This document shows, one piece after another, positions 37,205-54,974 of a stretch of 64,000 nucleotides of DNA (the first letter of the stretch is position 1; each line of letters opens with the position of its first letter). The translations under genes and the position numbers were made by a program. The notes below the pieces were generated by a model that saw only the letters and a program-made list of their open reading frames with translations, was not told the DNA's origin and made no database searches. Where the stretch lies: the NCBI GenBank assembly GCA_965204745.1, contig OZ242010.1, forward strand, positions 1,632,001-1,696,000. The letters run 5' to 3'. Source of the DNA: Candidatus Latescibacterota bacterium (GTDB taxonomy: Bacteria; Latescibacterota; UBA2968).

Positions 37205-38041
37205 ATGCCCACAATCCCCTCATCTATCGAAGTGACCCACAATGGCACGCGCTCTGTCCTCACGGCTTGCCGCTCCATTGCACCGCTCAAATTGCTCAAC
37301 CCCGCCACGCAGGGCACGTATTGCGCGGTTGTGATCTCCAGTTACGGCGGCGGCATGGTCGAAGGAGACGCGCCAATCCTCCGCGTGCGCTGTGGCAAAC
37401 GCGCGGCCCTGTACTTGGGCACGCAGGCATTGACCAAAGTCTATAAAAATCCCCACGGCATCCCGTCCAAACAAACCCTCATCGGCAAAGTCGAATCCCA
37501 GGCCCTCGCTATCGTGTGGCCCGATCCCGTTGTCCCCTATGCACAAAGCATCTTTGAACAAAACCAACACTGGCACTTGGCCCCCAACGCCTGCCTGCTC
37601 CTCGCGGATGGGCATACGGCCGGGCGCGTTGCCCACGGCGAACACTTTGCCTACGCACGTTACCGATCCCACATCGCCATTCACACGCCCAAACGCCCGC
37701 TCCTCATCGAACGCTACCACTCCGAACCGGGCGCGGTATCGCCCACGCACCCGGGCGCGTTTGGCCCTTACAACGTCGTCTTCAACATCTTCATCGCAGG
37801 GACGCCCGGCGAAGCGCGCTTCACCCACCTAATCGAAAATCTCTCCCAAACCCTCATCCCATTATTGCGACCAACCCCGCCCGACCTCTTGCTCTCTTTC
37901 GCCTCCCCCAAGCCCGACCTCTTCATCATCCGATCCCTCGCGCAAAATATCGAAAGCCTCCACCCCCTCTTCGCGGCCCTCCGCAACGCAATCGCCCACC
38001 CCAACATCCTCGGCACAGATCCCCTCGCCCGAAAGTACTAG
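37205..38041 (+). CDS. ureD: Urease accessory protein UreD
   Basis: PLKLL, SYGGGMVEGD, TQALTKVYK, PDPVVPYAQS, GRVAHGE, terminal RKY. Confidence 0.9.
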   Translation: MPTIPSSIEVTHNGTRSVLTACRSIAPLKLLNPATQGTYCAVVISSYGGGMVEGDAPILRVRCGKRAALYLGTQALTKVYKNPHGIPSKQTLIGKVESQALAIVWPDPVVPYAQSIFEQNQHWHLAPNACLLLADGHTAGRVAHGEHFAYARYRSHIAIHTPKRPLLIERYHSEPGAVSPTHPGAFGPYNVVFNIFIAGTPGEARFTHLIENLSQTLIPLLRPTPPDLLLSFASPKPDLFIIRSLAQNIESLHPLFAALRNAIAHPNILGTDPLARKY

Positions 38042-38088
38042 GTCGTGTTGACATTTTATTTTTTGAACGTTACGCACAGAGTAGCAAA

Positions 38089-38355
38089 TGTATTGCTTAC
38101 TCATTTAATGCGTTTGGTCCTACAGCCTCGTTGGTTGCCTCCGATGCCTTCGGCGACTTACTTTTTTTCAACAGCAAAAAAAAGTAAGCAAAAAATGCCG
38201 CTCTCAAACGCCGAGGGGCTTGCACAGCGCAAATCGCTTTCGTAACAGAACGATACGCGCCAGCCTGCAAAGTGGGTTGCATAATGGATGTGGGTTGCGA
38301 GACGGCCTTGCGCGCTGTGCGTGATAGCTTGATCGGAGGGTATTTTGCGAGGGCA
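38089..38355. repeat. Repeat family C, copy 2
   Basis: Aligns with 2831-3083. Confidence 0.9.
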
Positions 38356-38813
38356 CTTGTTAGGATGCCTTCTTTGAACTGCGGAACATCCGTGAATACG
38401 ATGCGTGTGGTAGCAAAAGCGAGAATGCTGAAGGAACCACTGTTGCCCGTCCCCGTTGCGGAGAGGGGCCGAGGGATGGGTCATCTTTTGTTTTAAGACA
38501 ACTTCTAAGGGGCACGAATTGGTTTTGTATATTTTTTGTGTTCTCAATTCCACATTCCCCCTTCCTCACAGGCACAGGCGTAGCCTACAACGAGTGAAGC
38601 GAGGGTAGTCCCGATATTCTTTGTTGCCTAATTTCAGGCATGTTATATTTTTTAGCCATCCATCTACTCGTTGAGATGGACTCCTGTGCCCCACCGCATA
38701 GGAGGAACGGATGAAGAAACGGATTTTGTCAACGGGCTTGTTGATTGCTTCTCACTCGCTTTCTACTCTTAATTCGCATTGTCAACCGACAACTTCAGAA
38801 AGGACGTACCATT

Positions 38814-39788
38814 ATGCCGATGGAATACGGCACGATTGACGGGATGAAGAAGAAAATCTCGCGCATTTTGCAGGGCACGATCATGTTGCGCGAAGATGAT
38901 TTGCAAGGTGGATTTGCATTGCTGGATGGGGTGTGGGCACTCGGGGTCAATGGGTTTGACGCTGCGTATATTTACGGCGGCGGGCAGTGCGAGCGCGTTT
39001 TGGGCCAGTGGCTGGAAGAACGTGGCCTGTTCGACGAGGCCGTCATTTTGACAAAGGGCGCGCATCATGCCGGCCCGAAAAACAAAGTCAATCCAGTCGA
39101 TATTACGGCGGATTTGACCGCGTCATTGGAGCGGTGCCGAACGGATTTCATCGACATCTACGTGTTGCACCGAGATGATCTCAATGTCGAAGTCGGACCG
39201 ATTGTCGAGGTGTTGAACGAGCACAAAGCCGCGGGCCGAATCGGCCTGTTTGGCGGGTCGAACTGGACCGTGCCGCGCATTCGGGAGGCCAATGAGTACG
39301 CTTACAAGCACAACTTGGAACCCTTTAGCGTGAGCAGTCCCAATTATAGCCTCGCCGAACAGGTGAAAGAACCCTGGCGCGGTTGCATCAGCATCAGCGG
39401 GCCGAGCAACGAAGCGGATCGGGCGTGGTACGCAGAACAAAAAATGCCCCTGTTCACGTGGTCGAGCCTCGCACAGGGGTTTTTCTCGGGCAAGTTCACA
39501 CGCGAGACGTTTGAAGCCTACAAGCCGAATCTGCCGGGGTCATGCGTGGATGCCTATTGTTACGAGCAAAACTTCGAGCGTCTAAATCGCGCGGGCGAAT
39601 TGGCGAGGGAAAAGGGGCTGACCGTGCCGCAAATCGCGCTGGCATTTAACCTGAATCAACCCCTGAATCTCTTTTCCCTGATCGGCGTGTTCCACCCGGA
39701 TGAGTGCAAGGCCAATATCGAGGCCCTCAATTTGAAACTCACGCGAGAAGAACTCGATTGGCTGGATTTGAAGTGCGACGAGCGATGA
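38814..39788 (+). CDS. Aldo/keto reductase
   Basis: FDAAYIYG, ILTKG, IDIYVLHRD, GGSNW, TVPQIALA. Confidence 0.9.
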   Translation: MPMEYGTIDGMKKKISRILQGTIMLREDDLQGGFALLDGVWALGVNGFDAAYIYGGGQCERVLGQWLEERGLFDEAVILTKGAHHAGPKNKVNPVDITADLTASLERCRTDFIDIYVLHRDDLNVEVGPIVEVLNEHKAAGRIGLFGGSNWTVPRIREANEYAYKHNLEPFSVSSPNYSLAEQVKEPWRGCISISGPSNEADRAWYAEQKMPLFTWSSLAQGFFSGKFTRETFEAYKPNLPGSCVDAYCYEQNFERLNRAGELAREKGLTVPQIALAFNLNQPLNLFSLIGVFHPDECKANIEALNLKLTREELDWLDLKCDER

Positions 39789-39807
39789 GCGAGAGGGCGA
39801 AGATGAA

Positions 39808-39937
39808 CCCCGCCCAACCCCCTTCGGTGAGAGGTAAGACGGGAGAGGCGAGAAACAGGCTCCAAGCGGTCAGTGGTCAGTGGTCAGTAGTCAGTAGTCA
39901 GTCCCCGCCCAACAGCCCCAAAACCCGACGCACTGCG
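39808..39937. repeat. Composite heptamer-repeat element, copy 2
   Basis: Colinear with 20391-20526. Confidence 0.8.
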
Positions 39938-40014
39938 TAGATGCACTGGCCCGAAAAACGGTCAGTTGCCCCGTTTCGTTGATTCGCTTGGCAGATTAAA
40001 TTAGCTTAAATGGC

Positions 40015-40047
40015 AAAGGCCGACGGGCATCACCCGTCGGCCTTTTT
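40015..40047. terminator. Bidirectional intrinsic terminator
   Basis: AAAGGCCGACGGG/CCCGTCGGCCTTT stem between convergent genes. Confidence 0.85.
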
Positions 40048-40048
40048 G

Positions 40049-40396
40049 TTAGACCTTTTGCCGCGTCCAGCCGCGTTTGACTTCGGGCTGTTTGCGGAAT
40101 CCCTTTTGCGGTTTGGTGCCGGTCGCGCCCAAGGCTTTTTGTCGCCTGTGATGGGTTTCCCACTGGTGTTGCATGCGCTGGCCCTCGTTTGAAGCCAGCC
40201 ACGCATCCAGTTTTTCTTTTGACACGCCGCGCTCTGTCACGATGCCCCCTTTTTGAAATGCCTGCCGCCTGCGCTTGATTTCGCCCCGCGAGCATCCGAG
40301 TTTTCGCGCCATGTGTTTGTCGTCTTCGCCAGCGACCAAAAGGTCTGCAAAGGTGCGATAAAATACCGCTGCGTCGTCAATTTGAAGATGTGCCAT
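40049..40396 (-). CDS. Hypothetical basic protein, possible HTH
   Basis: AGGAGG RBS, followed by terminator; MARKLGCSRGEIKRRR is HTH-like. Confidence 0.65.
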   Translation of the reverse strand: MAHLQIDDAAVFYRTFADLLVAGEDDKHMARKLGCSRGEIKRRRQAFQKGGIVTERGVSKEKLDAWLASNEGQRMQHQWETHHRRQKALGATGTKPQKGFRKQPEVKRGWTRQKV

Positions 40397-40470
40397 GTGA
40401 ACCTCCTAAGTGTCTTTCGTCTTCCCTCTCGCATCTTGTCTTTGGTCGAGCACGAGGCCATCGCCCCTTC

Positions 40471-41454
40471 TCACCGCATTCTCGATTCCGACATCCACAT
40501 ATCGGGGTTGTTGCCGAGTTTGTTTTTGACGCCCACCGTGATTTCAGAGAGGCGTTGCAGGAGGTCTTCGGAGAGCGCGAGTGCGACTGAGGGGAGATTC
40601 CATTGGACTTCGTCGGGCGTTCTCGCGCCGACCAGAAGCGAGGTGATGCCGGGTTGTTGCCGCGCCCACGCGAGGGCCATTTCCGCCATGGTGACGCCAG
40701 CCTCGGCGGCGACAGCGCGAATTTCTGACAGCGCGTTGAAGACTTCGGTTTCGCAACCGGGTTCGCCGTGTCGGGCCATGGGCCGGTCGTGCGAATACAG
40801 GCGGGTGCGCGCCAAGCCATCGGGCACTTCATCCGCAGAGGCGTAACGCCCGGTGAGCAGCCCTTGCATCAGCGGGCTATAGCAAATGATGCCGATCTCG
40901 TTTTCCAAACACATCGGCTGAATTTCGCGTTCGATCACGCGCCAGAGCAAGCTATACGGCAACTGATTGGTGGCGATATCGCCCACAGCGAGCAAGTCGC
41001 CGAGATCGCCGCAGGCAAAATTGCAGACGCCAATGGCCCGAATTTTCCCCTGATCGCGCAGGCGAGAAAGCGCGTTTGCGGTTTCTTCAATGGGGATAGT
41101 GTGATTGGGCCAGTGAATTTGGTACAGATCGATGTAATCCGTTTGTAGATTTTTCAAGCTGTTTTCACAGGCTTTGGGCAGATCATCGGATGAGAGATGA
41201 GCACCGCCGACTTTGGTGGCGATCACCGCTTCGTCGCGCCGCCCTTTAAGGCCACGCCCGAGGACGCGCTCGGAATTGCCATACCCCTCTGCCGTGTCAA
41301 AAAACGTGATGCCCGCGTCATGTGCGGCATGCACAGTGGCGATAGAGACGTCGTCATCTTGTTCGCCCCAAACATCGCCGCCGGCAAAAGGCCAACAACC
41401 CAACGCGAGGACAGAGACAGCTATATCCGTGCCGGGGAGTTTGGTGTAGGTCAC
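40471..41454 (-). CDS. Aldo/keto reductase
   Basis: FFDTAEGYG, IATKV, YIDLYQIHWP, YSPLMQGLLTG; GTG start. Confidence 0.92.
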   Translation of the reverse strand: MTYTKLPGTDIAVSVLALGCWPFAGGDVWGEQDDDVSIATVHAAHDAGITFFDTAEGYGNSERVLGRGLKGRRDEAVIATKVGGAHLSSDDLPKACENSLKNLQTDYIDLYQIHWPNHTIPIEETANALSRLRDQGKIRAIGVCNFACGDLGDLLAVGDIATNQLPYSLLWRVIEREIQPMCLENEIGIICYSPLMQGLLTGRYASADEVPDGLARTRLYSHDRPMARHGEPGCETEVFNALSEIRAVAAEAGVTMAEMALAWARQQPGITSLLVGARTPDEVQWNLPSVALALSEDLLQRLSEITVGVKNKLGNNPDMWMSESRMR

Positions 41455-41545
41455 GATTTGTCCTTTCGATGAGGTGGTCAGTCTCCGCCCATCCGCTTCG
41501 CCGCCCCATTCCGTTGCATGGCTCGCAAATGTCAACACAACCTAA

Positions 41546-42907
41546 TTACCGATGCCATGCGCCTTCTACGTAACGCGCCGATAGGCGGCGAGATAACTCG
41601 CGTCTGAGGTCGGGATTTTGTTCGGCGATGTTGTGTTCTTCTTTCGGGTCCGCGATCAAGTCGTAGAGTTCGGTGACGTCGTTGTAATTTTCGATCAACT
41701 TGTGCTCGTGCGTGCGGATGCACCGGAAGTTGCGGATGCCGCTGACGGTTTCGGCCCGGTGGCTCGCTGTTTCGCCCCGCAACACAGCCGCGATGGACCG
41801 GGCGTCGATATCCGAGAGCGGGGGGATGCCAGCGAGGTCGCATATCGTGGGATTTAGGTCGATGAGTTCGACCAAGGCATCGGAGACGCGCCCGGCCGCA
41901 ATGCCGGGGCCTGCCACGATGAGCGGGATGTGTACCGAGGCTTCGTAGGGTACGCTTTTGGTGTACAAGCCGTGATCGCCGAGCATTTCCCCGTGGTCGC
42001 TGGAAAATATGACGTACGTATTGTCGGCCATGCCTCGCCGTTCAACGGCTGCGAGGATTTCGCCGATCTGATCGTCGATGGCTTCGATGGCCGCGCAATA
42101 TTGCCGCCGCGTTTCCGCGATTTTTTCTGGGGTGATGTCTTTGACGCGGTCTTTGAGGTACGCGGGTTTGCCCGGCAAGTTCGCAGGTGTGGCAGGTGGC
42201 ATGTCCGCGTCGCGGTATTTGTCGCCGTATTCGGTGGGCGGGTCAAAGGGATCGTGCGGGCCGACAAAGCTGACGAACAAATGCCAGGGGAAATCCCCGG
42301 GGATGTTCTCGATCCATTCGACAGATCGCTGCCCAATATAGACATCCTCAAAGGCTTCGGTGGGCAAGACCGAATCGTGACAAGAGCAGTGAAAGCCCTC
42401 TTTGGCGCGGCGGGTATAATCAGCGACAAAGGCTTCGAACAACCCTTTGTCTTGCAAGAAGTGGTTGTATGGCCCCAGCGGCGTTTTGGAACGGCCCGCG
42501 TGCATTTTGCCCTCGCATTCAACCGGGTGGGTAAAGCCCCACATATAAGTGGCGGGACGGTCGCCGTCTCGTCCGTTGTACCCATCGGGTTTGGCGAGGT
42601 CGAGTTTGCCCACGCAACCCACGTAATAGTTGTAATCGCGCAGTTGCTGGTAATAAGTCGGTTGGCTTCGGGGCAAGAAGCAATTGTTTTCAACGCATCC
42701 GAGGCGCGAGGGTTGCATGCCCGAGGCGAGCGCAATGCGCGAAGGCGCGCAGACCGGGCAATTCGTCGTGCATTGGGTGAAGTGCATCCCCTGTTCCGCG
42801 AGGCGGTCGATATTGGGCGTGCGAACAAAATCCGCACCTGCACAGCCCAAGTAATCAAAGCGATGCTGGTCATCCATGATGAACAGGATATTGGGGCGAT
42901 CTGTCAT
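41546..42907 (-). CDS. Formylglycine-dependent sulfatase
   Basis: RPNILFIMDDQHR, CAPSR (CxPxR), PHDP, SDHGEMLGDHG. Confidence 0.93.
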   Translation of the reverse strand: MTDRPNILFIMDDQHRFDYLGCAGADFVRTPNIDRLAEQGMHFTQCTTNCPVCAPSRIALASGMQPSRLGCVENNCFLPRSQPTYYQQLRDYNYYVGCVGKLDLAKPDGYNGRDGDRPATYMWGFTHPVECEGKMHAGRSKTPLGPYNHFLQDKGLFEAFVADYTRRAKEGFHCSCHDSVLPTEAFEDVYIGQRSVEWIENIPGDFPWHLFVSFVGPHDPFDPPTEYGDKYRDADMPPATPANLPGKPAYLKDRVKDITPEKIAETRRQYCAAIEAIDDQIGEILAAVERRGMADNTYVIFSSDHGEMLGDHGLYTKSVPYEASVHIPLIVAGPGIAAGRVSDALVELIDLNPTICDLAGIPPLSDIDARSIAAVLRGETASHRAETVSGIRNFRCIRTHEHKLIENYNDVTELYDLIADPKEEHNIAEQNPDLRRELSRRLSARYVEGAWHR

Positions 42908-42973
42908 GTCGTCTCCTTAGAATCAGTACTTAAAGGGTAGGCACGCAATATAGGGGTGGTGTCTCTGTGCGTT

Positions 42974-43360
42974 CTACCAAAGCACCGGTACCGGGTAGCG
43001 AGAGATTGCCGCGTCGGGCGTTACTATCGTCAGGCTGTTCAAGATAGCCTGAGAGACGAGACCCCGGTCAAACGGATCGGAATGATGCAGTGGCAAGAAC
43101 GCTTCGTGTGCGGCACAGGCCTCGTCAAAGGCAAGCGGCTCAAGTCGCAACCACCTGCGCCGGCTGACCACATAGCGATCCGGCGGCTCTGGTAGCGGCA
43201 AACGACCTAACCGGTATTTGATGGCAATTTCCCAAGCTGAAAGCGCGCTGAGGTAAACGTCGTTCTCGGGGCTACGGCAACTTGTTCGCGCTACAGGTGT
43301 CAACTGCGGGTCGTCGGCCGCCAGCCAGAGGAAGGTACATGTGTCAAGCAGGAGTTTCAT
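42974..43360 (-). CDS. PIN-domain (VapC-family) toxin
   Basis: MKLLLDTCTFLW, SAWEIAIK, HHSDPFDR, VTPD. Confidence 0.9.
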   Translation of the reverse strand: MKLLLDTCTFLWLAADDPQLTPVARTSCRSPENDVYLSALSAWEIAIKYRLGRLPLPEPPDRYVVSRRRWLRLEPLAFDEACAAHEAFLPLHHSDPFDRGLVSQAILNSLTIVTPDAAISRYPVPVLW

Positions 43361-43751
43361 GCGATTGGTTGTCTCCGCAAAATGCGTTGAGCAGGTCATC
43401 GGGAAGCGGATCGAAGAAGCTAAGGGGAATGGTCAGTCCACGGTCAATCCCTACTGGGCGCAATTTTGAGGAATCAATTGCCCCAATAATTTCCTCAGTT
43501 TCTCGATGGTCCTTTGATTCGGGGAAACGGTGGCTGGCGTTCAGGATCGTAAGGCCGATCACTTGGCCCTGCTCATAGCGGATGATCACGTCGTCGTCTG
43601 TCAGTTCGCTATCGTCTGCACGACTGGGTTTTTTGAAATTGACATACAACACATCGGCTTCGGCATCGTATGAAGACCACAAATAGTGCTTCGGGGAATG
43701 CCGCACTGCCGGGATTAAGTGTACATATTTATCTACTGTGATAGAGGCCAT
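43344..43751 (-). CDS. DUF2283-type antitoxin fused to a VapB/Phd-type C-terminal tail
   Basis: YDAEADVLYVNF...VIGLTILNAS followed by RPVG...IPLSFFDPLPDDLLNAF. Confidence 0.7.
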   Translation of the reverse strand: MASITVDKYVHLIPAVRHSPKHYLWSSYDAEADVLYVNFKKPSRADDSELTDDDVIIRYEQGQVIGLTILNASHRFPESKDHRETEEIIGAIDSSKLRPVGIDRGLTIPLSFFDPLPDDLLNAFCGDNQSHETPA

Positions 43752-44044
43752 ACTTGCTTTCTCCTGTTTAGGGAATTTATTCGCCTAAAAAAAAAGGCAG
43801 TGATGATAAATCCATCTGATCCTACCTCACGATACGGTACGAGCAGAAATTTTCCAGACTCTATCTCGCGTACCGCGATCAATTCGCCTTGGTTACCCAC
43901 GAGGATTTTCAGGGGGTCTGTGACAGTTTCGAGGATTTCTTCCCGCATGCCTGCGAGTTCACAGTGTTCTTCTGTAATATGTGCCCAGCGTTCATCTGTG
44001 AGCCGGATCGGGATGCCGTTTAGCGATTGTGTGACTTCGTCCAT
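43733..44044 (-). CDS. Putative RelE/BECR-fold toxin paired with the DUF2283 gene
   Basis: IRLTDERWAHITEEH...TVTDP...GFIITAF; overlaps the DUF2283 gene. Confidence 0.65.
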   Translation of the reverse strand: MDEVTQSLNGIPIRLTDERWAHITEEHCELAGMREEILETVTDPLKILVGNQGELIAVREIESGKFLLVPYREVGSDGFIITAFFFRRINSLNRRKQVWPLSQ

Positions 44045-44066
44045 GAATAACCATCGTAGTTCATGT

Positions 44067-44558
44067 TTATCCGCTCGACAAATCTCGCTTGGCGATTAGG
44101 ATGCCGTCTGCGTCTGCGTAGAGATAATCGCCGGGCAGGAAGGTGACGCCGGCAAATGCGAGGGGCGTGTTTTGGCGGCCATGGCCTTCTTTGCGACTGC
44201 GGCGCGGCACAGCGAAACGCGCTTTGACGCCGATAGGGATTTTGGCGAGCTCGGAAACATCGCGCACCCCGCCGTTGATGACGATGCCCGACCAACTGTT
44301 GTCGCTGGCGATTTGCGCGACCATATCCCCCAACAGCGCGCACCACGTCGAAGCCTCGCCATCGACGACGAGCACGCGACCGTCGCCCGGGGTTTCGAGC
44401 ACTTGGCGCACGAGCGCGTTGTCTTCGCAAACTTTGACCGTGGCAATCGGACCGCAAAATGCAAGGGTCCCGCCGTAGTCGTCAAACAGGGGTTCGGCAA
44501 CTTGGAGCGTGGGATCGGTTTCATATTCGTCGCACAAATCCGTGGTATTGAAAGCCAT
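44067..44558 (-). CDS. rraA: RraA/HMG-aldolase family protein
   Basis: TTDLCD, TVKVCEDN, VLVVDG...ALLGD, GGVRD, YADADGI. Confidence 0.9.
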   Translation of the reverse strand: MAFNTTDLCDEYETDPTLQVAEPLFDDYGGTLAFCGPIATVKVCEDNALVRQVLETPGDGRVLVVDGEASTWCALLGDMVAQIASDNSWSGIVINGGVRDVSELAKIPIGVKARFAVPRRSRKEGHGRQNTPLAFAGVTFLPGDYLYADADGILIAKRDLSSG

Positions 44559-44772
44559 CGATGATCTCCCAGAATTTTGATGAACAAGGTGCTGACCGCT
44601 TAATATGCGTTTCAAAAGCGACTTGTCAATTTTTTTGTTTCGCAAAGCGGAACGGGGTACAACTGGCCGTTTTTCAGACCCAGTTCATCAGCAAAGGGCA
44701 TACGGATTTTGGGGCTGTTGGGCGGCCCTCTCCCGTCTTACCTCTCACCTCTCCCGTCTTGCCTCTCCCCTC

Positions 44773-45762
44773 TCACCATTCAAATACCACGCCCAAGGCT
44801 TCTGTTGGATCGTCGGCGAGCATGTCGAAGGTGGTCTGGCAATCGGCGGGTTTTGCGATATGGGTTATCAGGTCTTCAATGGGCAACTTGCCCGCGGCCA
44901 TCAAGCGCAAGACCAACTCGCGGTCCCTGCGCTTGTTCCAGGGATAGTAGATGTGCTCATCGTCCGGCGTTTTGGGCTGGTGCGCGCCTAAAATGGAGAC
45001 TTCGCGCTGGTGAACTTCGGGCAAAAAGCTCACTTCCACTTTGCCGCGTGGAGACCCCAGCGCGACCAGTCGCCCACCCAGCCGGGGCAAAGAGAGTGCC
45101 GTGGGATAGACTGCGGGGATGCCAGTCGCTTCAATGACCAGGTCCACGCCGTCGGCGGTGCCGTGGTCGCGCACGGCTTGGGCGACATCGGCTACGGCAT
45201 GGGGATTGAGACAGACATCTGCGCCCCGAGCACCGGCCCTGTCCAACCGGAAGGGGTTTATGTCGATAGCAATGACCGGCAAGGCGCCGGCCAAGCGGGC
45301 AAAGGTGGCCGCCAGTTGGCCCACAATGCCCATGCCGGTGATCGCGACGACCTCGCCCAATTCGGGACGGCCGACCCGGTGCCCGTGCAGGGCAATGGCG
45401 CACATGACCATAAAAGCCGCGGATTTGGGGGACACGCCCGCAGGCACTTGAAAGAAGTTCTGGGTCAGGACCGCGTGGTGCGCGTGATTGCCCTGCCCGG
45501 CGACGCGGTCGCCGGGTTTGACATTTCGCACGTCTTTGCCGACTTCGAGCGCGATGCCCGTGTTGCAATAGCCGGTTGGGCGCGGGAAGGTTCTCGGCCG
45601 GGATGGCTCGCCCCCGTGTGCGTAGTTGTAGATTTCCGTGCCGACGCTGATGGCGGTGTAATCGTTTTGCACCAAGATGCCGTGGGCCGGCAGGCGCGGC
45701 AATTCAAATTCCCGCAATTCGATCCGCCGAATGCCCGTGCAGACCAAGCGTTGCGATTTCAT
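44773..45762 (-). CDS. Zinc-type alcohol dehydrogenase superfamily oxidoreductase
   Basis: ISVGTE, PTGYCNTG, GMGIVGQL, DLVIEATG. Confidence 0.85.
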   Translation of the reverse strand: MKSQRLVCTGIRRIELREFELPRLPAHGILVQNDYTAISVGTEIYNYAHGGEPSRPRTFPRPTGYCNTGIALEVGKDVRNVKPGDRVAGQGNHAHHAVLTQNFFQVPAGVSPKSAAFMVMCAIALHGHRVGRPELGEVVAITGMGIVGQLAATFARLAGALPVIAIDINPFRLDRAGARGADVCLNPHAVADVAQAVRDHGTADGVDLVIEATGIPAVYPTALSLPRLGGRLVALGSPRGKVEVSFLPEVHQREVSILGAHQPKTPDDEHIYYPWNKRRDRELVLRLMAAGKLPIEDLITHIAKPADCQTTFDMLADDPTEALGVVFEW

Positions 45763-45773
45763 TTTTCGTTCTC

Positions 45774-47096
45774 CTATGGGGGATCGACCGGGACTTTCTG
45801 GCGTTTTGGAATGAGGGGATCGTAGGTAAAGCCCTCGGTTGCCTTTTCAAATTCCGCGCGGGCCGCTCGCAACTGCTCGGGGTTCGAGATCAGATCGATG
45901 GCCGATCCGGCAAAGACTTTGGCCGTTTGCAAAATCGCGCGCTCGGCAAAGGGCATGGCGGCTTGGGCGGTCATGTCTCGGTGATGGCCCGGCGTGCCCT
46001 TGGTATAGCACACCATCTGAAACCGGCCCATCGGCGCGAGCCACGACACATTGTCTTCATCCGATGAGCCGCGCCCTTGCGACCCCTTGCCCGTTTTGAT
46101 TTTCCCATCAAATTTGCCTTTGTACCCGAGTGCCTGCACGCGCTCCTCGTCTTTTTTGGATGCACGCGGCGGGCCGAATAATTCGAGGTTTTGGCGCACG
46201 GTTTCACCCATGGCATCGTTTGGCAACCGGGGATAGACAGCCGTGATCCGATGCCATTTCATCGTGGTTTCCGTGGCCATGGCCGCGCCTTTGGCGCATT
46301 TGGTCAATCGCTTGCGGATCTCATCGACCTGTGCGCGATCTTTTCCCCGCACGTAGTACCACACTTTCGCGTAGGCCGGCACCACATTGGGCGCGTCGCC
46401 ACCATCGCGGATCACGCAGTGAATACGCACGTTTTCGGGGACGTGTTCGCGCAAATAATTCGCCGCAATATCCATCAACATCACGCCGTCCAATGCGCTG
46501 CGCCCATGGTGCGCGCTCGCGCCGTGAGACGTTTTGCCAAAAAATTCGTACACCAGCGAATCCAGCGATGAGCCTCCGCGGTTGTTCACGCCCGTACTCG
46601 TTCCCGGATGCCACGCGAGCACCGCGTCCAAATCGCGGAACGCGCCATCGCGGGCCATATAGACCTTGCCGGACAGGGTCTCTTCGGCCGGGCAGCCGTA
46701 ATAGATGATCTGCCCGGGGGATTTCAAATTTTCCAACACTGCTTTTGCAGCGACCGCACCTGCGGCCGGGGCAACGCCCAACAAGTTGTGGCCTCAGCCG
46801 TGCCCCCATGTGCCTTCCTCAGCACCGCAGTTGGGCAATGCGTCGTATTCGCCCAACATGCCAATGGCGGGCTTGCCCATCCCCCATGTGGCGCGAAAGG
46901 CGGTTGGGATGTTTTTGAACGGAAATTCGATTTGGAATCCATTGTCTTCCAAATAGGTCGCCAATGCCTTCGACGATTCGCGTTCCCGAAAGGGCCGCTC
47001 GGCCCAGCCGTGAATTTGCCTGGACAGATCAAACGCCCGTCGCGATTGGGCTTTCACCGCAGGGTTGACCCGTGATTTTTTGGTTTTCGCATCCAT
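45774..47096 (-). CDS. M20-family (AbgB-like) amidohydrolase with in-frame TGA at the conserved Cys (recoded, or pseudogene)
   Basis: ORFs 46794-47096 and 45774-46784 are in one frame: EYDALP...GHG-TGA-GHNLLG...GCPAEE...WHP...GSSD. Confidence 0.85.
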
Positions 47097-47169: not shown

Positions 47170-49119
47170 TCAACCGAGATTATTTCCCGCCTTTTGCTTT
47201 GCTTCTCGAAGTTGATCGTATCGCTTTAGAAATTCTTTGTGTGCTCGTTTTACCATGGCGAGTAAATCTATGTACCTTCTGATGTAGATTTGCGAATTTG
47301 CTAAAATTTTCCTTTTTCCTCTCACTTGATAAGTGCCCACCAAATCTCCACAAAGGAGATATCCGGTGACGGCCTCGTACTGATAATCGAGATCCGTCGT
47401 CTGTTGAATGTTCTCCCGCATGAAGATAACGTACTCTTCAATTTGATCGAGTTCCTTCACAGAAGCCTTTGACCGCGGGCGTTTGATTTCCACTACGACT
47501 AAGTTCTTATCTTCTCGCACGCAGAGGAAATCAATGCGTCTGTCGCTTTCCGGGGCGTCGCTATTTTCCGGGAATTTGTCGCGCAGTAAGTCGCTATATC
47601 TCACCTCGTCATCGACCAATGTCCAACGCGGGTCAATCACCCACGGAAATTCTTTTAAGAAGTTGTGGAGCGTCGGTACTTCTAACGCATTGTTCTCAAT
47701 CAATTTTTGAAGTTTTTCAATTGTCGTGATTCGCCCTTGAGTCACCCTTGCCATTTCCTTTGCTTCGACAATTTCCCATTCCCGAAATAAATTGAGGAGT
47801 TTTTCGGTGTCCTCAAACTCCGTTTTCGTCAAGTCTTCAGCGATTTCCCAAAAAGCATCAAACTCCAAAAAATCAAGGGAGGTTTGGATGATGGGTTCGA
47901 GTTCCGCAACCTCGGCAATCGGATTCTTGTCAATCGCTTGACGCACCAATTGATCTGCCAACTTCAATGCCCGCTTATTGCCAATCTCCTCTGCTCGTTC
48001 TCGGAACTCGCCATAGACCGCGTTTTCTTCCAATTGCCGTTCATTATCTTCGCGGCGTTTCTTCGACCACTCCCGAGCAATTCGCTTGACCTCTTTATCA
48101 CCCCACTCCTTGAGAGCCGTATTCGCCTCCGTATCCCATACCAATGAGTTGCGCGTCGTTCCGATTGTATCTTCTCCTTCATCGACAAACTCGACGTGAA
48201 GTTCTCCAATGAGGTAGGAAAGCGCGAACTGTTGGCCGACAACCGCTTCAAAGACAAACGGCTCTTGGACCAATTTTCCTCTCGCCATCAGAACGATTCC
48301 GCGGTCTATCCCATCGATATCCGGCGTTGTGCGATTGAGCGCGCCAATCCAACCCGATACGGTCCAGCCCGTTTGGGGTTGGATTTCCTCTTTATCGTAT
48401 TCCCACAAATACGGCGCATCGTTCATATCTTTGTCGAGCAGGCGTTTCAAGTCGCGGTCTTCAGGCGAGATTGGAATCCCGTTAATCGCGACCTCAAAGT
48501 TTTGTCGCGCCCCAATGACAGCGAATCGCCTTGCGAGCCCTCGGCGGATTCTTTGAATCGAAATGCGGCGGGTTTGAAATTTTGTGATGTGTCTGAGGAT
48601 GACTTTTGTGCCTTTAGAGACAGTGCCAGTAGAAGCCAATGGCGGAAATTCGATTTTGCGCTCATCCGCTTTTTCCAACAGTTCGTCGTAGTTCATGCTG
48701 AAATGGCTGACTTCGCCATCTTTCACACTTTCAACATCGATCTCTTTGGCGATGCCAAACGCCGAGAACTTACCGATGCCTTTTCTGCCCATGATTTTGC
48801 GGCTGTGCGGAGGAGGCGTCTCATCGGATCGCTCATTTTCGCGCCGGTCTCGACCGATAATGAGGTATTTTTTTCGCACATCCCCATCTGACATGCCCAT
48901 GCCATCATCGCTGATGACGATTTCAGAGGTTTGTTCGTCAATCGGCGTTTCGGGTATGGTAATCTCGACCTTGGTTGCGTTTGCATCCCAACCGTTGGCT
49001 ACCAATTCCCCGATGACTGGCGGCAATGTCGAGTACATCTGCAAGCCGAGGTGCTTAATGGTATAAACGTCAAATTCCATCCGATATGGGGCTTTGGAAG
49101 CGACTGCGCGAGTACCCAT
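47170..49119 (-). CDS. GHKL (MORC/HSP90-like) ATPase fused to a C-terminal PD-(D/E)xK nuclease-like domain
   Basis: ELVANGWDANA, DDGMGM, GRKGIGK, GTKV; C-terminal RIDFLC...VVVEIKRP...QIEEY. Confidence 0.85.
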   Translation of the reverse strand: MGTRAVASKAPYRMEFDVYTIKHLGLQMYSTLPPVIGELVANGWDANATKVEITIPETPIDEQTSEIVISDDGMGMSDGDVRKKYLIIGRDRRENERSDETPPPHSRKIMGRKGIGKFSAFGIAKEIDVESVKDGEVSHFSMNYDELLEKADERKIEFPPLASTGTVSKGTKVILRHITKFQTRRISIQRIRRGLARRFAVIGARQNFEVAINGIPISPEDRDLKRLLDKDMNDAPYLWEYDKEEIQPQTGWTVSGWIGALNRTTPDIDGIDRGIVLMARGKLVQEPFVFEAVVGQQFALSYLIGELHVEFVDEGEDTIGTTRNSLVWDTEANTALKEWGDKEVKRIAREWSKKRREDNERQLEENAVYGEFRERAEEIGNKRALKLADQLVRQAIDKNPIAEVAELEPIIQTSLDFLEFDAFWEIAEDLTKTEFEDTEKLLNLFREWEIVEAKEMARVTQGRITTIEKLQKLIENNALEVPTLHNFLKEFPWVIDPRWTLVDDEVRYSDLLRDKFPENSDAPESDRRIDFLCVREDKNLVVVEIKRPRSKASVKELDQIEEYVIFMRENIQQTTDLDYQYEAVTGYLLCGDLVGTYQVRGKRKILANSQIYIRRYIDLLAMVKRAHKEFLKRYDQLREAKQKAGNNLG

Positions 49120-49137
49120 AACATGTCTCCTTCAGCA

Positions 49138-50163
49138 TCAACGCGAATCGGTAATTGATTTGCCCAACTGTTCTGCGAGTTTCACCGGGACAGCGTTGCC
49201 GATTTGACGAGAACAAGAAATCAAAGATGAACCGAAAAACTCGTAATCGTCTCCAAATGTTTGCAAGGCAGCGGCCTCGCGTAAGGAAATGCCCCTGTCT
49301 TGCTCGGGGTGTATAAAGCGACCACAATAAACATCGGTGCAACGACACGTCAACGTCGGACTCGGCTCATCCCATGCCATCCGCCCAAACACATCTTTAT
49401 GGGCGTTTGGTCTCTTTTGGTGACAGGGTAACAGAATAGAGGTGTCGGTCACATCCCGCCGACTGCCGCCGTTTTTGGGGATGGCTAAGACGATGCGTTT
49501 GTGGTGCGGTTGCAGTTTTCTGGCGACGTGATTCGGATGGGCCTTTGATGCTTCGCCATCGGCAATTGCAGGGTACTTTTCAATGCACGCCCGCACGGTT
49601 GACATCCGGCTTGGATCTGTTTGTGGCTTATGTAGAGAGATTGCCCCGTGTCTGGATGCCACGAGGATGAATCTCTTGCGCGTTTGCGGAACGCCGAAGT
49701 GTTTCGCGTCGAGCAAATCCGCCGCCGCCGAAAAGCCGCACCTTTTTAAGGTCGATAGAAATTCTTTGTAGATTTCTTTTCCGTGAGCTTTATGTAGCCC
49801 GGGGACATTTTCAACGAGAATAAAATCAGGAGGGCATTTTTTGATGATTTTTGCAAAATCCAATAGGAGTATTTTTCGTTTGTCTTTGCCTTTCTGCCTG
49901 TTGAGTGTAGAAAAGGGTTGGCAGGGCGTACACGCCGCATAAAGGATGAGGTCTTGCGGCTGGATGCCGAGTTCTTCCCGAAGTGCTTCAATCTCAATAT
50001 CATTGATGTCGCTGGCAATAAAACGACTGGGCTTGTTATTGTGCGTGTAGGTCTGTTGCAAGCGTTCATCATTGTCCACGCCTGCCAACACCGAGATGCT
50101 GGCATTCAACAACCCCCTCGTTAAACCACCCGCTCCGCAAAAGAAATCAATGGCTTTGATCAT
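49138..50163 (-). CDS. DNA (cytosine-5)-methyltransferase
   Basis: DFFCGAGG, PCQPFS, ENVPG, GVPQTRKR, REAAALQTF, QIGNAVP. Confidence 0.96.
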   Translation of the reverse strand: MIKAIDFFCGAGGLTRGLLNASISVLAGVDNDERLQQTYTHNNKPSRFIASDINDIEIEALREELGIQPQDLILYAACTPCQPFSTLNRQKGKDKRKILLLDFAKIIKKCPPDFILVENVPGLHKAHGKEIYKEFLSTLKRCGFSAAADLLDAKHFGVPQTRKRFILVASRHGAISLHKPQTDPSRMSTVRACIEKYPAIADGEASKAHPNHVARKLQPHHKRIVLAIPKNGGSRRDVTDTSILLPCHQKRPNAHKDVFGRMAWDEPSPTLTCRCTDVYCGRFIHPEQDRGISLREAAALQTFGDDYEFFGSSLISCSRQIGNAVPVKLAEQLGKSITDSR

Positions 50164-50317
50164 GGCATACCTTTCAAATTCTCAACCAAGCCTTGGAATG
50201 CTTTATCCAACAACCCCAACCCCGGCAACCCCTCCACAAACGCCCGTTGCGATTGGGCTTTCACCGCAGGGTTGACCCGTGATTTTTTGGTTTTCGCATC
50301 CATGATGGCAGTCCTTT
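50160..50317 (-). pseudogene. Chimeric remnant: amidohydrolase 5' end fused to a type IIG gene 3' end
   Basis: 50237-50317 matches 47030-47110 (80/81); 50215-50239 matches 55033-55057 (25/25). Confidence 0.85.
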
Positions 50318-50535
50318 CATGTCTGTACAAAGATAGGCTCACGGATCACATCTCGAATTTCCGCAACGGACTCTTCAGCGAGCAGGCGATTGGCTTCAAG
50401 GGTCATTGCGATTGCCTCTCGAATATTGACCCGAACTTCATCGAGCGTCTCCCCTTGCGTGTTCGCGCCGGGCAATTCTTCGACAAATCCAATATACCCT
50501 TCCGAGACTTTTCTATAAACTGCGGTGAATTTCAT
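50317..50535 (-). CDS. HicB-family antitoxin, HicA partner absent
   Basis: GYIGFVEELPGANTQGETLDEVRVNIREAI. Confidence 0.85.
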   Translation of the reverse strand: MKFTAVYRKVSEGYIGFVEELPGANTQGETLDEVRVNIREAIAMTLEANRLLAEESVAEIRDVIREPIFVQT

Positions 50536-50593
50536 GTTGGAAATCTCCTTTCGCGTTGTCTCGATCTACTGACGCTACGCACAACTTCACATA

Positions 50594-50883
50594 TGCGTTG
50601 CTTGTCTAAAGCGTTTGGTCCTATAGCATCGTTTATTGCCTTTGATGCCTTCGGCGACCTACTTTTTTTCTACAGCAAAAAAAAGTAGGCGAGCGGGGTA
50701 CAACTGCCCCAGCAGTTCAAAAATGCCGCTCTCAAACGCCGAGAGGCTTGCACAGCGCAAATCGCTTTTGTAATCGCACGACATGCGCCAGCCTGCAAGG
50801 TGGGTTGCATAATGGAGGTTGGTTGCGAAACGGACTTGCGCGCTGTGCCTGATGGCTTTTTCCGATGGGTTTTTTGATGGCAT
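50594..50883. repeat. Repeat family C, copy 3, carrying a ~28-bp nested insert (50691-50718)
   Basis: Aligns with copies 1 and 2 except for GAGCGGGGTACAACTGCCCCAGCAGTTC. Confidence 0.9.
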
Positions 50884-52377
50884 TCACCGTGAGTAGTCCG
50901 ATGGATTTTTCATGTTACCATTGATCACAAATACAAATGCCTTAGATGGAAAATCTTTGGCTATATCGTCTCCCCCATGAGTCTCGACATCAGTAAGAAT
51001 AATATCGTTCCGAATGTCGCCGGGGGGCTTATCTTTGGTCGTCAGGTCGAGTACGAGAAGGATGCTGACTTGTCGGGCTTCGACGCCTGCATATTGAGTA
51101 GCTTGGGCTGTGTACTTTTTCGAGATGTGCTCTCGGGCACCGTTTTCCTTTTCGACTTTTAGTTCGACAATCACTCCGCAATACCTAATATCTGTGACGC
51201 CCCCTGCTTGGCTTGAGTGTTCTTGTACATCCTGTCCGAGCACATTCCGGAGATCTCGAAGCACTCTTACTTGGAACTTAGCCTCCGATACATCACTCCG
51301 TCCCTTGTAGATTGCTTCTTGAGCATAAGTAGCCAGCAGACGAGTGAGAGCCTGAAGCATCTTTAACAAGTCAGGAAGTTCATAGCGGACTTTGGGACAG
51401 TCTGAAAGCAGTCTTGTGGCAAGTTCGTTAATGTGTTGATCCAGTCTCCGGTTGCCTGTCATCAGGGGATGCCTAGCTTCATTAACAACTTTGAGACGCA
51501 ACTCATTGTGCCCAATTACGGGGAGTTTAATGAACTTTCCGTCGGACGTTTCAAATGCGCCACGAACTGTAAATACAAGATCATCTAGACCGCTACTTTG
51601 CTCTGAATTGAACTTAATTTGTCCTGCTAATTCCCCCCGATACTCGCCATTTTCAACACTACCCGGTGCGGGCAGCACAAATTTGGAAATCGAGAACTCG
51701 GTTGAGGGACACGTCGTAAGCAAGTCAAGGTGAAGGCGAATCGCATCATTGGGCCATGTGAGGCCACGCACCCGAAATTCCAAAGGGTACAAAATATTGG
51801 GTTTTAAGAGTTGTGGACTTGCAAGCGGAGCATGATCCAGAAATACAATCACCCTCAACATCGGGCTTAGTGTAGCTACGGGTTCTTCTACCGCACCTTG
51901 ATATGGAAGATCCAATTTGCTTCTATGCCAGTACAAGATAGGTAGTGGGACTGCCAAGAGGAATGCACGCAGTCTGTCGGAATCGCATTGCCCTGTTTGG
52001 AACAATGATTGACGAATTGAATCCGCGATACCCGGCAATGTGAGAGTGTCCGACGAAATCCAACGTCGTAGCTCATCAACTAAGACATCGCATCTTGCAC
52101 GTTCCGCAACCAAGTCACCTTCACTACCTTGGGCAATTGCTACACAAGTAACTTGACTGACCAAGACACGTAGTCCGGCAACGACGACCTCCCACTCTAC
52201 AGGTACATACCCATCTGGCGTCTGTTTGATAAGTTTGTCAATCTGATCGACGAAAGTATCAACCTTCTGACACCATTCTACTTTATCATCAGTGTCCGAG
52301 TTCAAAATCGTGCGTATATCATGAATGAGTGCCACTGAATTAGAAGCATGATCAATATCCAACTTGGATTCCCACAT
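50884..52377 (-). CDS. Hypothetical protein with probable C-terminal PD-(D/E)xK nuclease domain
   Basis: SEAKFQ...QEHSSQAGGVTDI....IVELK...QATQY; TGATG coupling to the upstream gene. Confidence 0.7.
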   Translation of the reverse strand: MWESKLDIDHASNSVALIHDIRTILNSDTDDKVEWCQKVDTFVDQIDKLIKQTPDGYVPVEWEVVVAGLRVLVSQVTCVAIAQGSEGDLVAERARCDVLVDELRRWISSDTLTLPGIADSIRQSLFQTGQCDSDRLRAFLLAVPLPILYWHRSKLDLPYQGAVEEPVATLSPMLRVIVFLDHAPLASPQLLKPNILYPLEFRVRGLTWPNDAIRLHLDLLTTCPSTEFSISKFVLPAPGSVENGEYRGELAGQIKFNSEQSSGLDDLVFTVRGAFETSDGKFIKLPVIGHNELRLKVVNEARHPLMTGNRRLDQHINELATRLLSDCPKVRYELPDLLKMLQALTRLLATYAQEAIYKGRSDVSEAKFQVRVLRDLRNVLGQDVQEHSSQAGGVTDIRYCGVIVELKVEKENGAREHISKKYTAQATQYAGVEARQVSILLVLDLTTKDKPPGDIRNDIILTDVETHGGDDIAKDFPSKAFVFVINGNMKNPSDYSR

Positions 52378-54974
52378 CAAGTTTCATCCTTTCCCTTTGT
52401 AAAATATGCTTCAGCCGCTACTGTGTCACCGGTTTGTAGTGATGCGTTTCCTGCGGCGATCATCGCGAGTTGCTGTAATTTTGTGCGAAATGCTTCATGT
52501 CTTGGTTCTTTTGCGAGAGCGTTGGTTGCGGTCTCCAATACATTTTGCTCGTATTGAAATGCGCGGAAGTGCGAGAAAAGGCTTGCGAAATGGCGTGATT
52601 CCCAAGCATCACGTTTGGCTAGTTGTAGGGCGGAAACCAAGAGGTCATCTGCTATACTCTGATACGTTGCGACTGGAAGTTGGTGTAGCCATTTGAAGAA
52701 TCGAAAATGTCCGTAGTAATTAGAGCGATCTCTGTCATGGTACGCTATATGCACACCAATGTCTTTGGCAACAAATTTAGCAATTTTTTCGTTTGGCTCG
52801 CAGAACCGAATCAGGTTTTCCGCGATCTTTCTATCTACAAAATATTCTTTAGTCGGAAAGACAGACTTGACCATGCGTAACGCCAATAGTTTGAGGCTCT
52901 CATCTCGGTGACCAATTTTCAGGATTGCATCGCAGATACCTTCGAGTTGATATTTATCATTATGATACACACGAAGGTGTGCTTCAAGACACTTAAGAAC
53001 TTCAAGTGGTTGCCTTTTATCAAACCACTTTGAACACCGAGCCACGGCTTGTCGCGCAGCTCGATGAACAATGACTTTCGGATCTTGTAGGTGAACGATA
53101 ATGGTGTCCACAAGATTTTGGGGTGGCATAGTGGTCGAAGAAGAGAACATCTCGACTGTTGCGTTTATTGCTTCAGCCCGCACCCAAGATGAATCGTAAT
53201 CCATCAACGTACGCCAAATCAAAGGTAGTACGCGTGTTTGGAGAGTATAGTTCTTGCCAAGTTCACCGAGCAACGATACACAGCACCCCTTGAATTCGTC
53301 CTCAAGGTGTGCTGACGGTTGGTTCAAACAGTTGAAGACAGAATCGAATGTCTCTGAAGGCTTGGCTTTGCAGAGTTCGTTCAAGCATCCCTGCAATCGT
53401 CTTTTGAATAAATCCCATTGTTGGATGCGCCCTAATTCTTCTAGCAACTGCTCAAGTTGAGTATCTTGCGTCTGAACCTGGTTAGGTAGCAGAATTTTGG
53501 GCGGTGAGGCAGGCGGAGGTTCCTCGCCACTAATGATGGCAAAATAACCGAGGAGAGAGTCAAAATGGTTCAGCATCTCTGCTGAGGCATCTTGACAGGC
53601 GATTTCCAACGCTTCAAATGCAGCGGCTCGAATATCGATCTCGAATCTGTCGTCCTTAGCCCATGAAAGTAACCGCTTAATTGCAATCTTCTCCTGTTCT
53701 GACACTTCAGTTCGGTTTCTATGATCCTGTCGTTCTTCCCAACTTACGGTCTGGTCAAAAAGTGGGCCTCGGTACACACGAATAATATCTTCTTGCACGG
53801 CTGGACGAACGCGGGTCATTGACTCGGCAAGAAACTGGTCAACTCTCTCTGGGGAATACCGAAACGCCGATTGCAAAATTTGGATAATCTGTTCTGATGG
53901 CTTCTCTGCACCTGACCGTGTATTTTCGTAAAATTCAAGTGATTGAACTAAGTCGCCAAGTAGATTCTCGGCTATCTGTGGTCGTTCGCGCTGAATGAGT
54001 TTGATCGTTCCACACAATTGGAAGCGTTCGGCCTCACTCTCGTTTTGTAGTTCGCGGCGAATAATGTTTTGCACACTCTCTGGGTCAGCGTCAAAATTTC
54101 GTACGATGACTGCGGTACTGTGATAGTAGCCAGATTCATCGTAGGCCCTATTACGAAAGAAAAGGTAGTGATCCTGCGAAAATATCAAGTGTTTGATACA
54201 TGCTTCACTGAGTGGATACTCAACGGCGTCACCGAGCGCGTTAAGCATTGCGGCAGACAACTCTGGAGATTGTCCTTTCACAATATTGTCAAAAGCTACT
54301 TGGCTAAAGCGAGGGCCTAACTCAGAGCGTTTGCTGGCGAGTGTTGTACAGACCGGAAGCATTAGTTCGGAAAATTCGGCGGAACCGGCAAGTAGCAAGA
54401 TCAGGTCAATAGCATCGTCCGGAAACAGATCTGCCCCCAAGAGTGCAGATTGTTGCAAGCGTTCGGATGCTTCCTTACGTTCGGTTTCATCTTCAGAAAA
54501 AAACTCCTCGAGATACTTAAGTATGCTGTAAGCTTCGGGTTCTGATTCCGAGCTGATCTCCCCGGATTTTATACGCAAATCAGAGCGGAGTTGGGATATT
54601 CGCTCCGCTTCTGTTTTGGTTGCTTGCTCGCGTTCTTGGACTTCTTTTTTGTTTTTTTTTATAATCTCTTGTCCCCAAGAAGTATCTCCATTAGGAGTAT
54701 GATGCGGACAAATGGCACAATGTTCTACAAGGAAATTGGAGAAAATCCAACGAAGATTCATGGACTCGTGCATGCCCTCTACTTTAGGGCAACCTATGCT
54801 ATGGCTTGCAATGGGAAGTCCTGTCCATTGTGCGTAAAGCCCTTCAGTGGTTCGCTCAATCTCCACATGTTTGCACCAACGCCGCATTTGGCGTATGCAC
54901 TCAGCATTGTCCTCGCCGAGCTTTATAGCTTGCTTAAAATCATCATCTTGAGTTTCGTCGAATCGTCGCATCAT
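52377..54974 (-). CDS. Hypothetical 865-aa helical-repeat (HEAT/ARM-like) protein with N-terminal Cys/His cluster
   Basis: Long ORF with AGGAG RBS; WCKH, IGCP, HCAICPHH; repeated amphipathic helices (VRAEAI, VHRAARQAV). Confidence 0.7.
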   Translation of the reverse strand: MMRRFDETQDDDFKQAIKLGEDNAECIRQMRRWCKHVEIERTTEGLYAQWTGLPIASHSIGCPKVEGMHESMNLRWIFSNFLVEHCAICPHHTPNGDTSWGQEIIKKNKKEVQEREQATKTEAERISQLRSDLRIKSGEISSESEPEAYSILKYLEEFFSEDETERKEASERLQQSALLGADLFPDDAIDLILLLAGSAEFSELMLPVCTTLASKRSELGPRFSQVAFDNIVKGQSPELSAAMLNALGDAVEYPLSEACIKHLIFSQDHYLFFRNRAYDESGYYHSTAVIVRNFDADPESVQNIIRRELQNESEAERFQLCGTIKLIQRERPQIAENLLGDLVQSLEFYENTRSGAEKPSEQIIQILQSAFRYSPERVDQFLAESMTRVRPAVQEDIIRVYRGPLFDQTVSWEERQDHRNRTEVSEQEKIAIKRLLSWAKDDRFEIDIRAAAFEALEIACQDASAEMLNHFDSLLGYFAIISGEEPPPASPPKILLPNQVQTQDTQLEQLLEELGRIQQWDLFKRRLQGCLNELCKAKPSETFDSVFNCLNQPSAHLEDEFKGCCVSLLGELGKNYTLQTRVLPLIWRTLMDYDSSWVRAEAINATVEMFSSSTTMPPQNLVDTIIVHLQDPKVIVHRAARQAVARCSKWFDKRQPLEVLKCLEAHLRVYHNDKYQLEGICDAILKIGHRDESLKLLALRMVKSVFPTKEYFVDRKIAENLIRFCEPNEKIAKFVAKDIGVHIAYHDRDRSNYYGHFRFFKWLHQLPVATYQSIADDLLVSALQLAKRDAWESRHFASLFSHFRAFQYEQNVLETATNALAKEPRHEAFRTKLQQLAMIAAGNASLQTGDTVAAEAYFTKGKDET

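Follow-up and report, generated by a model that had tools for sequence, protein, structure and literature searches.

Almost all known selenoproteins are redox enzymes, and the most widespread of them in bacteria is the alpha subunit of formate dehydrogenase (FdhA). The M20D enzymes, to which HmrA of S. aureus, human PM20D2 and CsAga of C. striatum belong, are hydrolases built around a two-metal centre with a Cys/His/Glu/His/His ligand set, in which the homologous Cys93 of HmrA presumably acts as a metal ligand. In CsAga, according to a review, the Cys bridges both zinc ions. Selenocysteine (Sec) at the position of a Cys that binds a catalytic metal has precedents in FdhA (Mo/W) and in the [NiFeSe] hydrogenases, as set out in a recent review (PMC13188914, 2026, 'Recent advances in exploring the composition and evolution of the prokaryotic selenoproteome'). 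Table 1 of that review holds 119 families/subfamilies; M20 enzymes, peptidases and amidohydrolases are absent from it, as are these words from its text. Full-text literature searches returned no published M20 selenoprotein, which supplements of other papers and of bioRxiv preprints, beyond their reach, could still list, and none is present in the GOS paper, in the main text and three supplementary files of deep-Sep, or in the main text of the Haft preprint. Furthermore, not a single selenoprotein-specific model of NCBIfam release 20 was matched.

Here we describe an M20D-type gene with a TGA at the position of this Cys codon (Table 1). It lies in a window of 64,000 nucleotides, the whole stretch of DNA that was analysed, from an uncultured Candidatus Latescibacterota bacterium whose genome is assembled as one contig (5.48 Mb, 97.65% complete). 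The minus strand of window positions 46744-46802 contains CAC GGC TGA GGC CAC AAC TTG TTG, and when the TGA is translated as U, a single frame of 440 residues runs from the ATG at 47096 to the stop at 45774, with the TGA as its sole interruption. Reading and translating the minus strand thus bears out what a first-pass annotation had claimed from the letters, namely a TGA at 46794-46796 with both halves of a 440-aa protein in frame. Around residue 101 the protein reads ...NCGAEEGTWGHG-U-GHNLLGVAPAAG..., giving the motif WGHG-U-GHNLLG where Cys-form orthologs carry WGHGCGHNLLG. On the sequence evidence set out below, our verdict is that this is a genuine selenoprotein gene that employs canonical bacterial recoding, in a family not yet catalogued as Sec-containing.

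Table 1. Coordinates of the features discussed in the text (window positions unless a contig is named).
Feature	Position	Strand	Details
M20D-type amidohydrolase gene (HmrA/PM20D2-like), complete	45774..47096	-	440 codons; coordinates include stop
Predicted Sec-UGA codon, residue 101, Cys position of GH-x-C-GH	46794..46796	-	Same codon in 30 of 30 loci
Hairpin 1, GGGC-GUU-GCCC	46769..46779	-	+18 to +28; MFE -4.6 kcal/mol
Hairpin 2, probable SelB-binding SECIS core	46751..46768	-	7-bp stem CGGCCGY/GCGGUYG, loop RGGU, +29 to +46
Zone of suppressed synonymous change	46755..46781	-	Codons +5 to +13; RNA-level constraint overlapping coding sequence
Alternative long hairpin (RNAalifold), enclosing the UGA	46763..46800	-	13 consensus pairs; incompatible with hairpins 1 and 2
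Zinc-type dehydrogenase gene	44773..45762	-	Pfam ADH_zinc_N; 11 nt past the M20D stop
selD, itself a selenoprotein gene, context SCGG-U-ASKL	G000:C1:2158634-2159765 (outside window)		Directly beside tRNA-Sec
TIGR01891 paralog L189, Cys (TGT), HACGHD	G000:C1:3957549-3958631		
TIGR01891 paralog L190, Cys (TGT), HACGHN	G000:C1:3186260-3187303		

The protein scores 193.4 bits against the NCBIfam model TIGR01891 'amidohydrolase', above the cut-off of 153.75, and matches Pfam M20_dimer and Peptidase_M20. Its best relatives of solved structure, judged by sequence, are S. aureus HmrA (3RAM, phmmer E = 8e-43) and human PM20D2 (7YH4/8XZC). An AF2 model computed from an 18-sequence alignment forms one compact fold (mean pLDDT 88.5, pTM 0.88), for which Foldseek returns 3RAM as the top match (TM 0.82/0.92, rmsd 2.1), followed by PM20D2, CsAga 6SLF, 4EWT, 3IO1, YxeP 1YSJ and ILL2 1XMB; the model, the match to 3RAM and the M20_dimer hit agree on a two-domain M20 fold with a dimerisation domain. 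Residues H99, C/U101, H103, E138, E139, H163, H191 and H371 do not vary among the 18 orthologs of the alignment, and of these C/U101, H103, E138/E139, H163 and H371 align with the HmrA motifs that correspond to the Cys/His/Glu/His/His ligand set. From this alignment, residue 101 is predicted to occupy the metal-binding Cys position of M20D enzymes, and sequence and model together suggest an amidohydrolase or dipeptidase of the HmrA/PM20D2 branch. What the window protein has in common with the Cys enzymes HmrA (3RAM), PM20D2 (7YH4) and CsAga (6SLF) is the fold and the GH-x-C-GHN, PAEE, HPG and C-terminal His motifs, while it differs in having a Sec codon for the Cys codon, in an identity of merely 25-27%, and in a conserved downstream partner, a zinc-type dehydrogenase.

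Could the TGA simply be a mistake? A sequencing or assembly error in the host genome can be dismissed, since the identical TGA is found in contigs of four runs from four studies, which cover site 46794-46796 with zero differences, as well as in 55 genomes. Our first ortholog search, which covered 60 relatives besides the genome of the window itself (61 in total), gave a match in 52, and exactly one internal TGA was present in 49 of these; the remaining three matches are without TGA, one at 68% identity and two paralog-like at 38%. In all 30 loci retrieved from this search the TGA falls on the same codon. Extending the search to 168 Latescibacterota genomes, with E = 1e-120 or better as the ortholog threshold, resulted in orthologs in 56, of which 55 carry one TGA and one (G059) a Cys codon; the 55 genomes span three taxonomic families (f1, f2 and f3), all of one class. 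The TGA is thus by no means unique to this assembly, and homologues with TGA at the same codon, which the first-pass annotation had proposed to look for, are plentiful. Counted by locus, TGA is found in 21 and TGC or TGT in 37 of the 58 on genome contigs, and in two and 57, respectively, of the 59 on metagenome contigs. All 51 different Sec-form proteins that were checked, with identities down to 72%, have their TGA at the codon of residue 101 and are free of any further stop or frameshift, and in orthologs farther off the codon in this column is TGC or TGT.

The coding sequence on both sides of the TGA is under selection. The window gene was compared with each of 47 other full-length Sec-form sequences, and after pairs with dS <= 0.05 or without a computable value were dropped, 34 pairs were left upstream and 41 downstream. 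Median dN/dS amounts to 0.096 upstream of the TGA (100 codons) and to 0.071 downstream of it (339 codons), ratios that are rough because dS is near saturation (about 1.1-1.4). Relaxed selection past the TGA was looked for, and purifying selection was found instead. These values, together with the retention of the TGA in 55/56 orthologs from three families and the intact frames of the 51 proteins, speak against a nonsense mutation from TGC to TGA that left the gene dead or dying. This alternative, raised by the first-pass annotation, would take a single-base change, and public gene calls do treat the gene as truncated (320-336 aa); the conservation and selection data nevertheless exclude it, and we regard it as scarcely credible.

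These gene calls deserve a closer look. Among the 120 database proteins listed, 103 are full-length and all of these have Cys, whereas the other 17 are calls of 294-336 aa that lack the N-terminus and start just past the TGA, either at a TTG five codons beyond it or at codons nearby. Some of the truncated calls are named 'peptidase dimerization domain-containing protein', and one cluster of them comprises 217 sequences. Taken at face value, such entries would fit a gene with two products, a 100-aa N-terminal peptide and a 336-aa protein initiated at that TTG. However, the first 100 codons are part of the catalytic domain and are subject to the same purifying selection, and a split at this point would part H99 from H103 inside one motif. 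Moreover, the Cys-form orthologs are single 440-aa proteins, and the AF2 model is one compact fold. A pair of products is for these reasons very unlikely, and we consider the entries miscalls: throughout public databases, a full-length gene would be hidden under the name of a truncated 'peptidase dimerization domain-containing protein'.

A UGA that is read through calls attention to the decoding machinery, and all four genes that the first-pass annotation had suggested to look for, selA/selB/selC/selD, are found in the host genome. Its tRNA-Sec, at 70.1 bits, exceeds the gathering score of 47 and is called tRNA-SeC by ARAGORN, with anticodon TCA (UCA). The genes for SelA (489.4 bits) and SelB (377.6 bits) are adjacent, and SelD (372.8 bits), whose gene adjoins that of tRNA-Sec, has an in-frame TGA of its own, followed at +19 to +31 by its SECIS, the hairpin CCAGC-GGU-GCUGG with a GGU loop in the context GC-GGU-GC. 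Of the 61 genomes, 57 gave a SelA match, among them 48 of the 49 that carry the TGA form; the one left over, G012, is an assembly of 430 contigs with 91% completeness. A search for SelA found none in the Cys-form genome G059, itself 86% complete, or in its congener G055. A reassignment of TGA in the host can be discounted because TGA is the commonest ordinary stop there, ending 1015 of the 1954 frames of >= 400 codons.

It could still be argued that the UGA is recoded as something other than Sec, either as Cys through a mischarged tRNA-Sec or by near-cognate (Trp) read-through, with the hairpin merely promoting the event. Insertion of Cys at Sec-UGA codons under selenium shortage occurs in other organisms, as does SelB-dependent recoding to Cys. 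In this host, however, the full pathway for Sec synthesis is present, with SelA and with a SelD that is itself a selenoprotein, and the Cys form of the M20D gene occurs exactly where SelA is not found. A need for Cys could moreover be met by TGC, and two host paralogs indeed use TGT at this position. Recoding to another amino acid is as such unlikely, and UGA 101 is almost certainly read as Sec, although we infer the insertion of selenium itself. For the reading as a whole, in which UGA 101 would be decoded as Sec by the host's own SelA/SelB/SelD/tRNA-Sec system under the direction of an RNA element, we would put the probability at about 0.9. The first-pass annotation had called the gene a candidate selenoprotein, a proposal now supported by the recurrent TGA, by selABCD, by purifying selection and by a hairpin that fits the bacterial SECIS (bSECIS) model.

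The whole host genome has zero matches to formate dehydrogenase alpha (TIGR01553). If so, the Sec trait would be kept by other selenoproteins, namely SelD and the product of the M20D gene. Of the three TIGR01891 paralogs in the host, only one became a selenoprotein. A further in-frame TGA was seen in a paralog of the L190 type from another Latescibacterota genome (L192, G155:C97:1-2600; YRLG*VKEGK), for which a pseudogene and an assembly error are among the possible explanations; it falls outside the present finding because its position differs and is not that of a Cys.

So which RNA element would direct the decoding? Counting nucleotides from the U of the UGA, two hairpins follow directly upon each other in the conserved stretch 18-46 nt past this codon, of which hairpin 2, with its 7-bp stem and RGGU loop, is probably where SelB binds. 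In the window it reads CGGCCGC-AGGU-GCGGUCG, with an MFE of -11.4 kcal/mol that was reached by none of 200 shuffles. The hairpin that the first-pass annotation had drawn, GGCCGC-AGGU-GCGGUC, is thereby present and gains an extra C-G pair, which brings it to 7 bp, and the start of its loop about 32 nt after the UGA was correctly placed. The lower stem UUGC/GCAA proposed along with it holds up in part: three of its pairs are kept in 42 or 43 of the 43 sequences, whereas U30-A57 is broken in 25 of 43. As described in PMC13188914, the bSECIS model has a loop of 3-9 nt, a stem of 4-16 bp, a spacing of 16-37 nt, a G in loop position 1 or 2 that is followed by G/U, and an MFE <= -7.5 kcal/mol. Hairpin 2 agrees with it on every point (AGGU loop, 7 bp, G2 then G, 32 nt, -11.4 kcal/mol), with a spacing near the upper end of the range, and the SECIS-like hairpin 3' of the UGA that the annotation claimed is upheld. 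Hairpin 1 constitutes an extra invariant mini-hairpin between UGA and main hairpin by which the window departs from the bSECIS consensus, and it may serve as a spacer or stacking helix. The spacing in the E. coli fdhF SECIS is about 20 nt, compared with 32 nt in the window gene, and the loop context GCAGGU of hairpin 2 presumably resembles that of fdhF.

Conservation of this element is pronounced. Over 43 distinct sequences, pairing holds for 99.8% of the cells in the helices of hairpins 1 and 2. All four pairs of hairpin 1 are invariant, with variants (GUA, ACA) confined to its loop, and the substitutions in hairpin 2 either exchange A and G in the loop or keep the pairing (C-G to U-G; G-C to G-U to A-U), the exceptions being one GGGC loop and one A-C mismatch. 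Covariation is nearly absent and not significant because the element is almost invariant: double-sided change is limited to one pair (3 cells), and an equal score is reached by 46 of 500 shuffles. Support for the structure therefore comes from invariance and energy. The coding sequence carries the same mark, as the minima of synonymous diversity among 432 nine-codon windows start at codons +5 and +6 (0.094-0.097, against a median of 0.473), and all nine of the lowest windows overlap this stretch. Third-position identity is 0.92-1.0 at eight of the nine codons from +5 to +13, and about 0.5 elsewhere.

It should be noted that the signal is a local one, consisting of the hairpin and its conservation; the 75-nt region folded as a whole is no better than shuffles (z = -0.6). 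RNAalifold prefers the long hairpin that encloses the UGA, for which there is zero compensatory change and for which the window sequence gives z = -0.32 against shuffles. An Rfam scan of the region returned three chance-level matches (E = 2.5-3.2), far under the gathering scores. Pairing of an upstream GGGGCA with UGCCCC was dropped because the third base of the Gly codon varies (identity 0.42). Also dropped was a genome-wide scan for in-frame TGA with a GGU hairpin, which in its first version missed both the M20D gene and selD, and when loosened gave 99 mostly spurious candidates while still missing selD.

The Cys-form orthologs provide a natural comparison. They occur in Latescibacterota, Planctomycetota, Verrucomicrobiota and Kiritimatiellia, share 45-81% identity with the window protein at equal length, and go by names such as 'amidohydrolase' and 'aminobenzoyl-glutamate utilization protein B'. 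With their TGC/TGT codon, they show no suppression of synonymous change after it. The 18 nt homologous to hairpin 2 reach -7.5 kcal/mol or lower in 40 of 41 Sec forms (median -9.4 kcal/mol), compared with 8 of 70 Cys forms (median -4.05 kcal/mol). As some Cys forms fold as well, the G+C-rich AAGAV codons are evidently fold-prone, and the hairpin by itself proves nothing. One such case is L144, a Cys form at 61% identity on a metagenome contig, with the near-identical hairpin CGGCCGCGGGUGCGGUCG (-11.4 kcal/mol). From L144 it may be that the SECIS-like fold predated the change from Cys to Sec.

Where the Sec form came from was addressed with a quickly built maximum-likelihood tree (LG+G4) covering 155 different proteins, in which the Sec/Cys column was masked and four relatives at 37-41% identity served as outgroup. 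All 51 Sec forms fall in a single clade of 57 rows that is nested among Cys forms, and the clade also includes six Cys forms (P0002/P0003, P0004, P0013/P0017 and P0014). At least five changes of the Sec/Cys state are needed, three of them forced by starred branches. On the simplest interpretation, a single change from Cys to Sec was followed by reversions; the tree is equally compatible with other divisions into gains and losses. As such, Sec appears to have arisen from Cys within one Latescibacterota class, with some lineages having gone back to Cys.

What, then, would Sec do in a hydrolase? In the proposed mechanism, it would replace the Cys that in the M20D subfamily is a ligand of the two-metal centre, and the mature enzyme would therefore carry a selenolate, rather than a thiolate, at its catalytic metals. 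The situation is similar to that of FdhA and the [NiFeSe] hydrogenases in that Sec stands for a metal-binding Cys, a role that is predicted in M20D, and differs in that those are redox enzymes and the window gene encodes a hydrolase with a two-metal centre. On balance, we favour a natural, non-redox hydrolytic selenoenzyme in which the selenolate of Sec101 bridges or binds both catalytic metal ions and tunes them without redox chemistry of its own. If this is true, selenium would tune the choice of metal, its Lewis acidity or the resistance of the ligand to oxidation, and the known roles of selenium in proteins would be extended to that of a ligand in a two-metal hydrolase. Furthermore, the natural Sec/Cys pair, whose orthologs are up to 81% identical, would offer a way to address the effect of a selenolate on a Zn, Mn or Co centre.

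The surroundings of the gene also set the Sec form apart. The dehydrogenase gene adjoins 20 of 21 Sec-form loci and none of the 37 Cys-form loci, and in the window it probably shares an operon with the selenoprotein gene. Copies nearly identical to the M20D gene (runs X1-X20) derive mainly from sponge and marine metagenomes, from nine studies, and these sources suggest a sponge-associated lifestyle of the lineage, which would then have retained its Sec machinery although it is without a formate dehydrogenase match. Directly upstream of the M20D gene, window positions 47170-54974 on the minus strand hold genes for a HATPase_c_3 protein of 649 aa and a C5 cytosine DNA methylase, besides two large ORFs of 498 and 865 aa for which Pfam gave no match. 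This stretch is possibly a restriction or defence island; in related loci, the HATPase gene did not turn up in the vicinity of the M20D gene. On the other side, positions 37205-45762 encode a UreD urease accessory protein, two aldo/keto reductases, a sulfatase, an RraA-like aldolase and the zinc-type dehydrogenase. In many loci of the same genus, the RraA-like and sulfatase genes are likewise found downstream.
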